Below are positions 20,067-34,922 of a DNA stretch of 64,000 bases, piece by piece (the stretch's first letter is position 1; the number at the start of each line of letters is the position of its first letter). The notes beneath the pieces were generated by a model. The model saw nothing but the letters and a program-made list of their open reading frames with translations, was not told the DNA's origin and made no database searches. The stretch comes from Pelagomonas calceolata (taxonomy: Eukaryota), in contig CAKKNE010000001.1 in assembly GCA_918797485.1 (NCBI GenBank), positions 4,650,001 through 4,714,000 of the forward strand. The letters are read 5' to 3'. The translations under genes and the position numbers were made by a program.

Positions 20067-20500
20067 GGCTGTCTAACGTAGCGCGCGGCGGCGGCGTCGA
20101 GAATCGGCGTCCGCGTGCGCGTGCGTCGATGTGTCTCGAGCAGCGTGGGGGGCGCCTCGGCTGGCGCGCGCGCGGCGGCGGCGTTGAACTGGGGCTGGGC
20201 TGAGCTCTTGGAAAGTAGTGAACCAGCGCTAAAAGCGGTAACGCGCGACGTAGGGGCCGCGTCCGCGTACGCTGCTTTTCCTAGTGCCTTACAAGCGCTA
20301 GCTACGCTGCTGCGGCTGAAGTGGCTGCAGCGAGCGTTTGGACCCAAAGAGCTCACCTCCGCGCGTCCAGGGGCGCTTCTGAAAAGGTTGACTCCTTGCG
20401 CAGCCGGTGTGCCGGTCTATCGGCAGCGGTACGGCCAGTGCCGCCCACTCAAGGACCTGTGCAAGTGCAAACAGCAGACGGACGACGCAGCAGCGGAACA

Positions 20501-21800
20501 ATGCGGTGGCTCACGCTGCTCGCCACCGCAGCAGCGCTCGCACCAAAGGACGACAAATCTTTAGCGCTGTGGCTCCTCGAGCCGTCGCGGACCATCGACG
20601 AGGTGCGGGCCGGCACGGAGACGCTCGCGGCGCGGCCGCCGACGCAGCCCTGCGACGCGCTCGCGCTGTGCATGGCCTCGTGGGCGGCGTCCCAGAAGCA
20701 GCAGGGCGACCTGCTGCCGAAGCTAGCCGCGAAGCTCGCCCCGCGCCTGAGCGAGGCCGTCGACTCGCCGCGCTGCGCCGAGGTGCTCTCGAACACGGCG
20801 CGCGCGTTCGCCGTCGAGGCGGCCCGGTCCGACGCGCCGGAGGCGTTCCAGGGGCTCTTCGCGGCGCTCGAGGAGGCGTGTCGCGCGAAGCGCCTCTCGG
20901 TAGACCGCCGGTGTGGAAGTCAACGTCGCGTCGATGGCGTAACGATCACACACAGGTGGACGCGGGCAACTTCGCCGTGGTCTCGCGGTCCTTCGCCGCC
21001 GCGCGGGAAGTCGGCGCCTGCGCGGACGACGCCGCGCCGTTCCGCGGCGCGGCGCCCGCCGACGTGGCCGAGGCGTGCCTGCGCTCCCTCGACGCGCACG
21101 CGGCCACGGAGCGGCTCGGCGCCCTCGACGACTTCGCCGTCTACTCCGCGTCGGGCGTCATCGACCGAGCGGACGCGGACGAGCTGCTGCGCCTCGCGGA
21201 GGACCAGTGGACGGCGAGCGCCGCGGCGGGCGACGCCACAAACAACTACCGCACGTCCGAGACGGCGTCGCTGCGGGACGACGCGTCGCGCGCGTCGAAG
21301 GCCGTCGACCGCGTCGCCGCCAGGGCCGCGGCGCTGTTTGGCCTGCCGCGGTCGGGCTCCCGCGTCGTTCCCGTCAGCTCACCGGTACGCCATCGACGCG
21401 AAGGGAAGACGAGACAACGCCACACACAGCGAGAAAACACCACGAAGAAAAACACAGGTCGTGCTGCGAGACGCTGCAGCTCGTGCGGTACGCGTCGCCG
21501 GCCGCGTTCTACAAGCCGCACCTCGACTGCCTCGAGGAGGCGGGCCAGGTTTTGTTAGGAGGCCAGCGCGTCGGCACGGTGCTCGTCTACCTCAACGACG
21601 TCGAGGACGGCGGCGCGACGCGCTTCCCGGCGCTCGGCTTGGAGGTGGCGCCGCGCGAGCTGCAGGCCGTCGCCTGGGCGAACGTGCGCGCGGACGGCGT
21701 CCCGGACGTGCGCGCGCGCCACGAGGCGCTGCCCACGGCCGCGACCAAGGTCGCGGTGAACTGCTGGGTGCGGGCGTTCCCGGGGGCGGACGCGCTCTAG
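20501..21800 (+). CDS. Prolyl 4-hydroxylase-like 2OG-Fe(II) oxygenase with signal peptide
   Basis: YRTSET, ETLQLVRY..YKPHLD, LVYLNDVEDGGATRFP, HEALP, KVAVNCW. Introns 20900-20955 and 21351-21457 keep frame. Confidence 0.85.
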
Positions 21801-21901
21801 TTTCCCATGTTAAATTTAGGTGTGTTGTCGTTCTAATTATTCGTCGCTGCGCACCGCGGGCTTCGTTGAGCGGACGTCTGGCGGCCGTCGGCGCCACTAG
21901 G

Positions 21902-24900
21902 GGCTTGCTACGGATGCTGGTAACCTGAAAAAAAAAAAAAGAGGGGGGGGAAAAGGAAAGGTAAGAAAAGAAGGATGCTGCCTGTACACCTGGGCGGCAA
22001 GCTTTCGTACGACTTTCGATAGCAAAATTCCAATTAATTTCAATTTTTAGCAGCTAACAGAGGCTCAAAGGGGAGGGAGCGTACAGAACGGTCCCGGCCT
22101 GCTTTCCGAGACGTGGCGAGGGTCATCAAAAGGGCGCCCGCATTTGCAGGGGTTGGTGCAGTGTTCTCGGCCGCGGACGAGGTGGGCGCCCGTGGGCCGG
22201 CCGCACCGCAAGCACGTCGTCCGGCCGTCGACTCTTGGAGCAGGCACTGGCCTTGGTGGCGGCGGCATAAAGCCCCACGGCGTCGCCGGAGCCGTCGGGA
22301 GGGGCCTGTGCGGGAAGAAAAAGCCGGGCGGCGGCGGCGCGTTCGGGAGGGCGCAGCAGAAGGGCACGACGCCGGGAAACTGGATCGGCTGCCGCTCCGC
22401 GGGCGGCGGCGGCGGCACCCGGGTCGGCCCGCCGGGCTCCGCGGGCGGCGCGGTCGTCGCGTCCCGATCCGCGCGCTGATACCGGTATGCTTCCCGCACA
22501 TTCTGCTGGTCGGCCGGCGTCAGATCTTGAACTACTTCCACTGGATTATACCGACGGTCATACTCGTCGTAGAGCTGCTCCATCGTTTTCAACCTAAGCT
22601 TAAGATGAGCGTCGCCGGCGAGCTGCTTGTGTACCTCCGTGATAACACGTTCGGTCCACTCCGTCATGAACTTCTGGTAGGAGCTCGAGCTACTGCGCGT
22701 ATACTTCTTGTGGAGCTCTTCAAACAGTCTGCGCTCGTCCTCGCCGTCCGGGCCCTCGTTGAACGGCGTCGGCGCCTTGTCCTTCATGCCCGAGAGCTTC
22801 CCTAGGTGGTCAAACGACGTCGTGCGGTTGTTGATGGCCTTATTAACACTCACACGTTTCAAAGAATCGTCGCCGCCCTGGTCGACGTCCTCGACGATCA
22901 CGTCAAAGTGCCTCCCGTCGCCTTGATCGTCTACGTGCCACGCGAGGTGGATGGACGGCGCGTCGACGTCCACGGTTCCGTCGGGAAGAAGCTCCTGGTG
23001 GTACGGCACACGGCTCTCGGTTCGTCGGACACGACCATCAGGATGTATGATCGAGATGAAAATAGAAAAGCCGAACGCGAGGCCCAACCCCATCAACATC
23101 AAGTGGTCGCCCCAGCGACTATTTGGCGCCTTCTCGTTGTGCAAGTCATCCTCATTGGTCATCTCCTCGAACCAGCGGTCCCACGACCCGTGCCGCGCAG
23201 AAGCTTCGTTGTCGAGCGGGGCGCGGTCGGCGTGCACACGACTTTCTCGGTGCGTGCGCATACGTCGTGCCGCTTCAGTCCGCAGATTTATGATCTCTCG
23301 GCGCACCACAAGATCGTTGCCGTCCTTCCAGTCGATTTCAGCAGTAAAAGGGCTGGCCTTATACGTGAGGCTGCAGCCGCAAACGCCCGGTAGAGGCACC
23401 TGCCGTCGCCACGCACGGTCTGGACGAAGGATTGCGGCTGGGGCACGTCCGGGGGCGCGTCGTCCTCGGGGCTGACTGGCGTGGGGTCGTCATTCAAGTT
23501 CAGACGCGACAAGTCGACGATGTTCTGGCACTCCATTCCAAACTTTTCGTCCCCTCGGCCACGCTCATTAATGTTGAGCTTTGGGAAGGGGAGGTCGTCG
23601 GTCTGAGGGGCGAAGGATGCGGCGATACTATTGATCACCGCTAGCGTCTCGTGGTGGTACGTGTGGTAGTCCACGTCGCCGAGCTTGTCGATGCCGCGGT
23701 CGATGTTCCAGCGGTAGATGAAGGACCCGACGGCGTGTTCCGCCCGGACAGTACCACAGGTCGTCGAGCCGATCGCTGCCCGAAGTAGGCGATGCATCGC
23801 TTCCGACTGCGAAGAACCACGGGAAGTAAAGTAGAGCGGCGGCGCAGGCCGACCAGGTCGCCTCGATCGTGAAGCCTTCGCTGGCCGCGACGTGTAGAGG
23901 CGCGCTCCGGGCGGGTCCGACAGGCATCCCTGGCATGCAGCCCTAGGCGTCGTGCCAGGCGTCGGGCACGCGGCATTTAGATGGACCCTGCACACATGCT
24001 TCATCTGCTTCTTTTTGACCGAAGCAAATTTTTTCGGGTTGAAGAACAGAGGCCTATCAGCCACGGCGGCCATCTCCGCGTCGGTCTCGTTACCCTGAAT
24101 CTCGTTTTGCGCCGCGGCCGCGAGGATTGCGGTGTCTCGCTTCACGAAGACGTTCAGGACGTTCTCGATATTCTCACGAAGTTGTTTCGGCGGCGGCACC
24201 ACGCGGCGGCACATGCCGTAGATCTCCCCGCGTTTCTTCTTCGGGTAGTAATCCGTAAGTAAGGCGACGTCATTGGGGTCTGGTACAAGCACGGCGTCGC
24301 GTAGCATCGCCCGGAACTGCCAGCGGAGCTTGTGGGTCGATGGTATCGAGATGGCCTCGTCCCAGCGAGCAAACCAGTGGAACGGGTCCAACAAAATAGG
24401 CACGTCGGGGAACACGCGGTTGAATGCTGTTCGCCGAGAACAGCAGTTGTCGATGTAGATTGCACTGGGCATGTAGTCGTCGCCGTGCATCTTTTTAAGG
24501 CGTGCCAGAAGTGCCGCGAAGTGCGGCTCGGTCTCCTCAAAAGCGTCCTCGCGATGGTGAAATCCATACCACATGACCTGTGTAGACCGACGGCGTCGAC
24601 GCCGCGTCGATGGCGTCGATGGAGTGGACGTCTGATTCGACGCTGTAGTAGCACCTGGCCCGCCTCGTTTACGACAGAAGCGAACCCTCCAAAAGGCTTA
24701 AACAGCATGCCCGAGTCCGGGTGGTAGCACACGATTTTCTCGGCGATCTTGTAGGTGAAATCTGTCTTAAGTACCTGGCCAGACAGACCGGCGAGTTGGG
24801 TAGTGACAAACTCGCGTCGGTCAGACCACATCCCTGCAGCAATATCATCAACGATGTCTCGGCCCACAAATACGCCGTTCCACCCATTTTTATCGTCGAA

Positions 24901-26327
24901 GTCCAGGAAAGGAGGCGGGACGTAGCGAACAGTTCCGTTCTCAGCGTTCTGCGCAGCTTCGCGTTCTTCCATCGCGGCCTTGCAGGCAGCAGCCGCAGCG
25001 CGCCGGTCGGCGAGCTTCTCCACGTCGTTCGGTTGCTCTGGTTGAGAAGGAGGAGTAGTAGGCGGCGGCCACGAGCCGTACTTCTCCTCGAGATACTCCA
25101 GCGCCATCGCTTTATAATGTTGGAGCGCCTTCAATTGGTCAGAGCGGTCGCGCTTCTTGGACACTGACCGAGCAATCAGCGCCGATTCCTGCACGGCCTC
25201 CAGGTCCTGGATACTATGAACGTTGATTTCTCTGAACATCGCAACCTTCCCTGGTCCAAAACCCCTCAGTTCTGATAGTCTATCAATGCGAGGGGCTGCT
25301 CGCCGTTCGTCTCGAGCTCGCCGCGCAGCGCCGAGTTGATTCACGACCTCCGCAGCAGTCCTCGCATCTGCGAGACTACCTCTAGCAACACCGAGCGCTA
25401 GTCGAGCTGGACGTTGATTGGTGTTGTTTGTCCTCTCGGCCGAAGTGAGACGACCGTGAAGTGCCCAATAGTTCAGCTGCTGGCCGTAGTAATATTCGAT
25501 GTAGAAGTGCTGGAGTATTCGTACTGTAGGAGCTGTTCCGAGCGGGTCCCAGGCGTCCTCGATCAGCTTTGCCTGTGTGTAAATCGACTATTACTGACAC
25601 GTCGACGCCGTCGACGCCGTCGACGCTGGGCCGCACGAGGTCAGCTTCCACGGCGTACTTCTTGCCCTTGAAAATGTTGAAAAACGACCGCACATGGATC
25701 GGGCACTGCGCGATGGACTTTGGATCTGTCAAGCGAAAAAGTATACCACAACGCTTGCACTTGAGCCGCACGGTGTCCAACCACCAGTGGTCGTGGACGC
25801 CAAAGACGCGCACGACGTTCGATGGCCATACTTTCGACTTTACGTCCACCATCGAATCCTTGCCAATGCAGCAGTCATTTGGACAAGGTGGTGCTGGTAG
25901 TTCATTATGGAAGAAGATGTGTGGCAACCACACGCCGATGGGGCGTCGGTACCACTGCTCGCGCTGAGGCGGTTGGCGCGTGCGCGCCGCGCGCCATGCC
26001 GCGTCCGGCGGGTTCCAGTGCCAACCATTGGAGAATATTTCTTCGCAGAGCTGCTGAGGGCTGCCCCACAACGTGTCGATGCGTCGCCGCAGCCTCTGGA
26101 CGTCGTCGCGGACGTGCGGCCCACAGGACCACTGGCCAGTGTTTTTTTTGGCCGGTGCTGGCGCCGGCGCCGGCGCCGGGACGTCGTCAGCAGCCGCGAG
26201 GGCCGCTAGGACGCAGCCGATCACAGTCAGGGTGCGCATTTTACCCTCTCCCGGCCAAAAACACGCTGCCGAAAAGGTAAACTTACACATACCATAAGTG
26301 CACTTTTACCGGTATCCGTAGCCGGTC
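21902..26327 (-). mobile_element. 4.4-kb DNA transposon with imperfect TIRs and 8-bp TSD
   Basis: CCACTAGG flanks both ends (21894-21901, 26328-26335). Termini GGCTTGCTACGGATGCTGGTAA vs reverse complement GACCGGCTACGGATACCGGTAA (17/22). Encloses a transposase gene. Confidence 0.82.
22065..26290 (-). CDS. Dada/DUF6729-like DDE transposase fused to OTU-like protease; two introns and one apparent frameshift
   Basis: Motifs WLP..CP..R...CKRC, LKTDFTYK, VVNEAGQV, YIDNCC, LDPFHW, RGSSQSEAMH; OTU GDGRCLYRA..WGDH..HFD; C-terminal Cys/His knuckle. Introns 25573-25636 and 24578-24654 restore frame; frame change near 23340-23390. Alternative start at 26239. Confidence 0.75.
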
Positions 26328-26526
26328 CCACTAGGAATCGTTTGGAGCTGCTGCCCCTTCGGAGAGCCGCGCGCTGCCTGGCGCATCGCTGCCTCCGCCG
26401 CCGCCGCGAGCTCACGACCGCCCACGACGCCGCCGCCGCGCCGCCGCCACGCTGCCCGCGCCGCTCCGCGCGCCGGACTCTGTCCGCACCACCTTGGCAG
26501 CCCCTGGGGCGCCTGCGTCGCGCAAT

Positions 26527-26730
26527 ATGTCCGACGATCATAGCGCCACGCGCAAAACGGACCGCACGTCGCAGGAGCTCGACGCGGTGCGCGCCATGGT
26601 GGCGGAGATGCGAAGGGATATTGCCGCGCTCCGGGCCGAGCTCGGGTCCGACGCGGAGCCCCACCACGTCGCGCCGTGGCCCACGGCGGCCTCGGCCTAT
26701 GCGTCCATACCCACCGTGCCCCGCGTGTGA
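26527..26730 (+). CDS. Possible small coiled-coil protein
   Basis: 67-aa ORF with heptad-like ELDAVRAMVAEMRRDIAALRAEL and GC3 bias; no recognised family. Confidence 0.35.
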   Translation: MSDDHSATRKTDRTSQELDAVRAMVAEMRRDIAALRAELGSDAEPHHVAPWPTAASAYASIPTVPRV

Positions 26731-27081: not shown

Positions 27082-27720
27082 ATGCTGCGCGCAGCGTTCG
27101 CGCGCGTCGCCCGCGCGGCGGCGCCGCCCGCGCGCGCCGCCATGCGGCCCGCGCGCGCCGCCGCCCCCCGCACGACGCAAACGCGGTTCTTGGCCTCGTC
27201 CCTCCAGGAGACGAAGTCCGTCGACGACTTTTTACAAGCCCCGCCGGAAAATAAAGTCGAGTTCATGGTCACGAAGGTCGATGAATTGGTGAACTGGGCG
27301 CGCAAGGGCTCGCTCTGGCCCATGACCTTTGGGCTGGCCTGCTGCGCGGTCGAGATGATGCACTCGGCGACTTCCAGATACGACATGGAGCGTTTTGGGA
27401 TGGTGTTTCGAGCCTCACCTAGACAGTCCGACGTCATGATCGTCGCCGGCACGCTCACGAACAAGATGGCGCCGGCCCTTCGCAAAGTCTACGACCAGAT
27501 GCCCGAGCCGCGCTGGGTGCTGTCCATGGGCTCGTGTGCCAACGGCGGCGGCTACTACCACTACTCCTACTCCGTGGTGAGGGGCGTGGACCGCATCGTG
27601 CCCGTGGACATCTACGTGCCGGGCTGCCCGCCGACGGCGGAGGCGCTGCTGTACGGGCTCCTGCAGCTCCAGAAGAAGGTCAAGTCGAACCGTAGTTTAT
27701 TGCTCCGGCTGCGCAAGTAA
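27082..27720 (+). CDS. NDUFS7: Mitochondrial complex I PSST/20-kDa subunit
   Basis: [52 protein letters not shown]; Arg/Ala-rich presequence. Confidence 0.97.
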
Positions 27721-34549: not shown

Positions 34550-34819
34550 CGTCTTGGGGTTTGCTGCTGTGCGTGGGCTGCCTCGCTCTCGCACCTGCAG
34601 CGCACTCTTGAGGCGCTGTTTGAGCAGGCGGGGGGTCCGCCGCCCTACGCGTGCGCGCTCGATAGTAGACCTCGTCGGAGCGCTCTCTGCCTCAATTCGA
34701 GAGCCCACGAAATTCGGACGAAGCGCGCTGCGCGATGAGGCTCAGCTCGACCAATGTGGCCCAAACTCCGGCAGGATGGTCGTCTCGTCGTCGCAGACAA
34801 AAAAAAATCAAAAAAAGAG

Positions 34820-34922
34820 TACAGTCTGCGGGATTCGAACCCGCGCCCGAAGACCAGTGCCTTAAACTGGCGCCTTAGACCACTCCGTTGGGACGTGGTT
34901 TCACACGTCTGGCCAAAACTGC
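34820..34922 (-). tRNA. tRNA-Leu(AAG) with 25-nt ectopic BHB intron at 12/13
   Basis: GCAGTTT TG GCC[intron 34886-34910]GAGTGGTCTAAGGC G CCAGT TTAAGGC ACTGG TCTTCGGGC GCGGG TTCGAAT CCCGC AGACTGT A, followed by T-runs. Confidence 0.93.

Follow-up and report, generated by a model that had tools for sequence, protein, structure and literature searches.

Must a Dada-type transposase insert into small-RNA genes, and what might a deubiquitinase-like domain do within it? Both questions arise at a locus of the alga Pelagomonas calceolata, in the 64,000-nucleotide stretch of contig CAKKNE010000001.1 (GenBank assembly GCA_918797485.1, positions 4,650,001 to 4,714,000, forward strand) that we analysed and refer to as the window. 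It holds a whole, autonomous-looking transposon on the minus strand (21902–26327; 4,426 bp in the window and 4,427 bp with a base found in reads). We consider it probable that this is an intact and transcribed DDE transposon of the Dada type that has moved recently, likely by cut-and-paste with an 8-base stagger and without targeting of small-RNA genes, and that carries a fused OTU domain predicted to strip ubiquitin and so to protect the transposase or its repair partners.

Element boundaries and recent mobility

The element is flanked by two copies of CCACTAGG (plus strand, 21894–21901 and 26328–26335), an 8-bp target-site duplication (TSD) whose sequence occurs only at these two places on the plus strand of the window. 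The element ends, GGCTTGCTACGGATGCTGGTAA and the reverse complement of GACCGGCTACGGATACCGGTAA, form an imperfect 22-bp terminal inverted repeat (TIR) that is identical at 17 of 22 positions, the terminal G included. The 3′ repeat lies at 21902–21923 (plus strand) and the 5′ repeat at 26306–26327 (minus strand), each with the perfect 9-nucleotide core GCTACGGAT placed 5 nucleotides inside the terminus (21907–21915 and 26314–26322). Among the 35,896 pairs of identical 8-mers spaced 1–12 kb apart in the window, three show an inner match of this quality; apart from the pair at the element ends, these are low-complexity, GC-rich sequences. No further copy of the element was found within the window.

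DNA contigs from sequencing runs place the boundaries at the same bases. In run X3, the element contig (depth 345) starts at 21902, the left-flank contig has a depth of 152 and the right-flank contig starts at 26298, which puts the branch at 26328, provided that the words are 31 long. In run X2, a single unbroken contig of 4,400 nucleotides ending at 26300 covers 21902–26300, and thus begins at 21902. Both runs contain a second right flank, beginning AAGCCAACGCGG (opening bases AAGCCAAC), which is unrelated in sequence to the right flank of the window copy. Element depth in X2 is about twice that of the two right flanks (28.4 versus 16.1 and 14.5), and the corresponding depths in X3 are 333 versus 138 and 140. 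The two copies are identical at the contig level and diverge at the first base beyond each end: the contigs branch at 21902, leaving 21894–21901 outside the element, and the second copy departs from 26328 onward. The duplication is therefore 8 bp long, and none of its bases derives from the element. The clear ends and the 8-bp TSD that the initial annotation had read from the letters are thus borne out, and the comparison with another copy that it had proposed gave the same ends and upheld the length.

In run X1, no branch at 26328 and no second flank appeared, and depths of 596 versus 412 fit a single copy. The presence of the second copy in two runs and not in the third points to recent movement, and copy number is likely to be polymorphic between runs. 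X1 and X2 are possibly sources of the window and are not independent of it; X14, labelled organism B, contains the same sequence at a depth of 3–6 and was likewise not counted as independent. Two annotated proteins labelled Pelagomonas calceolata, P0166 and P0167, are encoded on separate contigs (6.3 and 5.4 Mb).

Two further ends are present in all four runs, on a contig of 190–203 nucleotides. They have 45–57 terminal bases in common with the 5′ end of the element (26271–26327, the terminal ~57 bp), diverge inward from there, and finish in GGCC, not GGTC (a CC versus a TC continuation). They possibly represent a related or non-autonomous family, and may be partners of the element.

Gene structure and transcription

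The gene model comprises three exons on the minus strand and encodes 1,344 residues. Exon 1 (25637–26239; residues 1–201) encodes a signal-peptide-like leader and a CCCC zinc finger (DUF6729); exon 2 (24655–25572; residues 202–507) encodes an HhH-like insert (25200–25284) and the first catalytic aspartate, D472 (24760–24762); and exon 3 (22065–24577; residues 508–1344 and the stop codon) encodes D550, D571xxH574, E766, the OTU domain, a helical region and CCHC knuckles. Intron 1 (25573–25636; 64 nucleotides) and intron 2 (24578–24654; 77 nucleotides) are both of the GT..AG type, and both junctions agree with those of P0171 (1,344 residues) and P0167, which are identical to the model at 1,340 and 1,339 of 1,344 residues, respectively. 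RNA depth dips within intron 2 (14 and 7 at 24602, versus about 55–105 in adjacent bins).

The element is transcribed and, on the gene model, spliced: sense poly(A) RNA covers it at bin depths of 29–463, versus at most 1.3 in the flanking bins (about 6% of each of the runs X21 and X22, from one sample). RNA 5′ ends pile up at 26246 (16 of 32 and 11 of 33) and 3′ ends fall near 22050. Marine metatranscriptomes contain 21–32% of the words of the element, as a word match only. A second pile of RNA ends lies inside the open reading frame (ORF) at 22415–22418, upstream of the knuckles, and may reflect alternative polyadenylation or a library artefact.

The window differs from the reads at two places. 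One base is missing at 23345, inside the OTU domain, where 141 of 167 and 138 of 165 RNA reads, as well as the two DNA contig sets, have the extra base. Four substitutions lie at 23605–23610, where 86 of 86 and 100–103 of 104 reads carry the alternative letters. With reads and DNA contigs both carrying other letters, these differences are most likely assembly errors. P0166 has the residues of the window at 830–832, and this annotation is probably distorted by the same errors. A pseudogene was considered and ruled out by the base at 23345 in reads and contigs and by the open P0167 and P0171.

The two introns of the transposon share CGTCGACG-type repeats with one another and with host sequence near 20923 (about 20920–20945), a resemblance that suggests membership of a repeated host intron family; the relative at the metagenomic locus L001 is intronless. 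Host-type introns and steady expression would also fit domestication as a host gene, or segmental duplication in a species that has large segmental duplications according to the available part of PMC9481584. However, the sequence shared by the two copies is confined within the inverted ends, a TSD is present and copy number varies between runs, and we regard either origin as highly improbable.

A Dada-type transposase

The transposase is of the Dada type. Its DDE triad, in which a DxxH follows the second aspartate, is intact (D472, D550, D571xxH574 and E766), and in an alignment of 61 sequences (A4) the filled rows retain the catalytic columns at 49 of 49 (D), 53 of 53 (D), 54 of 55 and 55 of 56 (DxxH) and 48 of 51 (E). 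The N-terminal finger (C119, C124, C161 and C164) matches DUF6729 above the cut-off (E = 6e-10), with a spacing of 5/37/3 versus 5/35/3 in Dada-U6_DR (C389, C394, C429 and C432). Across the D, D, DxxH and E motifs, hhalign pairs the protein with Takifugu (pufferfish) XP_056904256, itself not named Dada, at a probability of 99.0. In a by-eye translation of Dada-5S-A_CaAu, the motifs ILCIDGTKK, SVLNEWGQ and VIYADNNCC match, in the first two aspartate contexts. Four relatives bear a 3′–5′ exonuclease of the kind described for fungal and brown-algal Dada.

The other motifs of the initial annotation were also recovered: the HhH-like LRGFGPGK lies at residue 303, and the C-terminal Cys/His knuckle proved to be two (C1296-C1299-H1306-C1314 and C1318-C1320-H1329-C1339; 22083–22214, minus strand). 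The profile search that it had suggested supported its Dada-like assignment through DUF6729, while the OTU Pfam models and the MULE model PF10551 stayed below the cut-off and neither KDZ nor CxC profiles, which would mark KDZ/Zisupton, matched the full protein. Five proteins (P0001, P0168, P0173, P0176 and P0179) are environmental variants that differ at ~5% of residues overall; their changes cluster in the C-terminal knuckles (residues 1297–1342) and leave the catalytic motifs intact.

The catalytic core is predicted to be ISCth4-like, that is, of the IS256/Mutator kind. In a model of the core of a relative, P0017 (predicted local distance difference test (pLDDT) 85), the top five PDB matches are ISCth4 (6xgx, 6xg8), with a best Foldseek E value of 4e-4, and the C/DxxH motif and the long TSD are further likenesses. 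In contrast, identity is 13–15%, the Pfam MULE model gives E = 0.16, long TIRs are lacking and the finger is of the Dada type. Elements of the MuDR/MULE group have long TIRs; the ends here are 22 bp, and PF10551, at the E value just given, does not place the protein among them. Members of the hAT superfamily combine an 8-bp TSD with hAT transposase domains; the TSD length fits, no hAT Pfam domain was found, and in the structure search with the P0017 core Hermes ranks no higher than 50th (E = 0.16).

A representative search with P0001 gave 211 proteins at E values up to 0.001, 150 of which are listed. An unrooted tree was built from the 48 proteins that hold both the DxxH and E motifs, leaving out fragments and near-duplicates. 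Five OTU carriers and one fragment form their own branch (support 93/83, not starred), in keeping with the distinct lineage that the initial annotation had proposed. A 31-row branch that includes the Ulp1 carrier P0034 has 100/100 support; a 99/98 split separates the fish and exonuclease rows, the fish row being a long branch. The HhH-like insert is present in the OTU branch and in the 31-row branch and is missing from P0100, P0123 and P0147. No relatives were found in viral contigs, phages or prokaryote genomes; word-index searches yielded 2, 2 and 1 proteins and no more full-length members of the OTU branch. A metagenome scan returned a single locus, L001, in which element ends, a TSD and RNA genes were not found; three tandem copies of ~184 bp lie past the stop codon of its P0017-family gene (L001 5136–5572).

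Target site and relation to canonical Dada

Canonical Dada elements, as characterized in the available parts of the literature (Kojima & Jurka 2013, PMC3706591; Kojima 2022, PMC8869645), have a TSD of 6–7 bp, insert into small-RNA genes (tRNA, small nuclear RNA (snRNA) and 5S) and measure 4.7–11 kb. Their inverted repeats, of 7–9 nucleotides, are sub-terminal, and in the founding paper every element whose ends could be defined was located in a small-RNA gene (PMC3706591, same limit). The Pelagomonas element shares with them the DDE triad with DxxH, the near-identical CCCC finger spacing, the C-terminal CCHC, introns and a 9-nucleotide inverted core near the ends. Unlike them, it has an 8-bp TSD, a site outside small-RNA genes, two unrelated targets, an inverted repeat that runs to the termini (17 of 22), an HhH-like insert, an OTU domain and a signal-peptide-like leader; at 4.43 kb, it is also slightly below their size range. 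The initial annotation had set its TIRs against a Dada family without any. The imperfect TIRs stand, but inverted repeats also occur in Dada (7–9 nucleotides, sub-terminal, in the available part of PMC3706591), and with a perfect core of 9 nucleotides here the contrast is a matter of degree.

The insertion is intergenic, 93 bp past the stop codon of a 2-oxoglutarate-Fe(II) (2OG-Fe(II)) oxygenase gene (20285–21800) and ~190 bp ahead of a small ORF of 67 residues (26527–26730). In the rebuilt empty site, ARAGORN finds no tRNA gene at its default threshold, and neither flank has an Rfam match near the cut-off, so that the view of the initial annotation that the empty site does not resemble a small-RNA gene holds. 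A tRNA-Arg call at the empty site appears only at ARAGORN -ps80, a setting at which a gene is likewise called in 196 of 200 random joins, and disappears at ps90 and at the default. A gene for a complex I 20-kDa subunit follows at 27082–27720, and a tRNA-Leu called by ARAGORN (34819–34888) is distant from the element.

These data bear on whether the element is simply a canonical Dada with a true TSD of 6 bp, the usual sub-terminal repeats and an unrecognized multicopy sequence as its target. For Dada-U1 and Dada-tIA, Kojima & Jurka did shorten TSDs that had seemed to be 8 bp long to 6 bp, and the perfect core of 9 nucleotides falls within the length of Dada sub-terminal repeats (PMC3706591, available part). 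However, the second copy diverges from the very first base beyond either end, which places all 8 bases outside the element, and the contig branching rules out a 6-bp re-reading like that of Dada-U1; the right flanks are unrelated, with no tRNA or Rfam match at the site; and the OTU branch is split from the fish-containing group at 99/98. This makes a canonical Dada quite improbable. Since neither the 6–7-bp TSD nor the small-RNA target is found, we file the element as a Dada-related branch.

The OTU domain

The OTU-fold domain (residues 887–1072; 22884–23440, minus strand, one base short in the window at 23345) follows the catalytic region, as the initial annotation had it, with catalytic residues in OTU motifs (GDGRC901 and H1064-F-D1066) that align among relatives. 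In a model of P0001 (pLDDT 78), all 39 Foldseek matches listed are OTU-family proteases or complexes (best OTUD1, E = 7e-4), and VIA-align superposes the domain on OTUD3 with Z = 12.3 and a root mean square deviation of 2.6 over 128 residues. An iterative profile recovers the domain at the equivalent place in relatives at about 25–45% identity, and the UniRef name of P0167 is ‘OTU domain-containing’. Both the catalytic Cys and His are retained in P0001, P0002, P0008, P0009, P0014 and P0017; among fragments, the Cys is visible in P0019 and P0133, the His in P0005 and P0010. P0007 has an additional C-terminal tail that finishes in an OTU-like His motif. On the strength of its fold and catalytic residues, the domain is predicted to be a deubiquitinase. 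It resembles OTUD1, OTUD3, yeast Otu2 and viral OTU deubiquitinases in fold (Z 11–12) and in the Cys-His-Asp order; unlike theirs, its activity is predicted, and identity to them is 14–20%.

In the model, low-confidence linkers connect the domain to the catalytic core on one side and to a distinct C-terminal module on the other. This arrangement would also suit a self-processing protease, which would cleave the transposase polyprotein and release, for example, the C-terminal part or the leader, as proposed for Medicago MULE-OTU fusions (PMC1702500, available part). Yet the close structural matches are all ubiquitin or ISG15 isopeptidases, and sister-branch proteins P0034, P0058 and P0071 have Ulp1 after the core in place of OTU, which points to the ubiquitin/SUMO system; we hold self-processing to be unlikely. 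P0058 was deposited under the name of a bacterial metagenome-assembled genome, probably through eukaryotic contamination.

OTU or Ulp1 fusions are known from Ginger1 and Helitron elements (PMC2836005) and from Medicago MULE-OTU (PMC1702500; available parts of both). As in those systems, the OTU protease is C-terminal to the transposase core and swappable with Ulp1 among related branches; whereas theirs are Gypsy-integrase-like, rolling-circle or MULE enzymes, this one is of the Dada type, so that the novelty is confined to the combination. The searchable literature (Repbase and subscription journals lie outside this scope) gave no report of an OTU-fused Dada or of this element, and searches on DUF6729, Pelagomonas DNA transposons and transposases with a signal peptide did not find this element or combination. 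In the available main text of PMC8869645, ‘OTU’, ‘protease’ and ‘terminal inverted’ have no occurrences, and in that of PMC9481584 ‘transpos’ occurs twice with no family described; the protein dataset of the founding Dada paper (PMC3706591) may hold OTU-bearing members. Each ingredient except the leader has a precedent, and their combination was not found in the literature searched. An Atlas lead, with a score (0.82) short of the reliable range, is a cluster of 59 members (OTU 49%, DUF6729 10%) whose commonest label is Cnidaria, and OTU-bearing Dada may therefore extend beyond protists.

The N-terminal leader

Residues 1–17 (26189–26239, minus strand) form a signal-peptide-like leader, as judged by our own heuristic and an identity count. 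The protein begins MRTLTVIGCVLAALAAA followed by DD, and P0017, which is 27% identical overall, begins MRTGTILLLVLICCFAGSA (its family leader lies at L001 554–610). The heuristic passes 5 of 159 Met-starting proteins, all from two full-length OTU-branch families, and 12 other full-length relative families fail it; its background is 3 to 11 of 688 ATG-started window peptides. The two leaders share 5 residues among positions 2–11; of 996 window peptides that begin at an ATG, a single one attains this level, and it is the transposase itself. The next in-frame Met falls within the zinc finger, and an upstream in-frame ATG, at 26290, is beyond the main RNA start. By this heuristic, the leader resembles a signal peptide in both families.

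Proposed mechanism and weight of evidence

In the mechanism that we propose, the zinc finger, the HhH-like insert and the knuckles would be responsible for binding to target DNA and to the 22-bp ends. By the established chemistry of C/DxxH DDE transposases, the enzyme would bind the ends, excise the element and join it to the target across a stagger of 8 bases, and it might also mobilize the related ends of the same genome. The OTU domain would act in cis on ubiquitinated transposase, or would free repair factors of ubiquitin; a role of this kind was suggested for Ginger1 by Bao et al. (PMC2836005, available part). In the most speculative and least supported step, the leader would send most of the protein to the endoplasmic reticulum (ER), damping transposition and leaving a small nuclear pool. 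Carried further, the element could belong to a protist-wide, non-RNA-targeting Dada-type branch in which a conserved signal peptide directs the protein to the ER and only retrieved, self-deubiquitinated protein reaches the nucleus, coupling transposition to proteostasis stress; we think this extension doubtful.

Several observations weigh against the proposed reading. The 17-nucleotide end motif, taken alone with up to 3 mismatches, occurs twice versus 1.09 times expected, which is no excess over chance, so that the evidence for the ends is the combination of duplication and inverted repeat. Neither an empty allele nor an excision footprint was seen, only two target sites could be read, the second by its right flank alone, and the lack of a second copy in X1 was read from filtered contigs. 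The core fold was modelled on a relative, and its best Foldseek E value is no lower than 4e-4. In Pfam, the OTU-clan model Peptidase_C65 reaches E = 0.12–0.28, below the cut-off, and PF02338 does not match; a PDB sequence search with the post-gap OTU part (22800–23489) gave no match, and an Atlas search with the OTU region no usable match. The OTU Cys motif is degenerate or lost in the close relatives P0003 and P0007, and OTU activity is thus dispensable in part of the branch. The case for the leader comes from two families and a home-made heuristic, with its threshold set on the window protein and the feature spotted post hoc.

Implications

As an intact, expressed and recently mobile relative of Dada with 8-bp duplications, inverted ends and unrelated targets, the element offers a natural comparator for the origin of Dada target specificity. 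Being compact, low in copy number and resident in an alga that is cultured, it also provides a route to the long-open question of why transposases bear OTU or Ulp1 proteases. A genuine secretion signal on a transposase, if true, would be surprising in itself.

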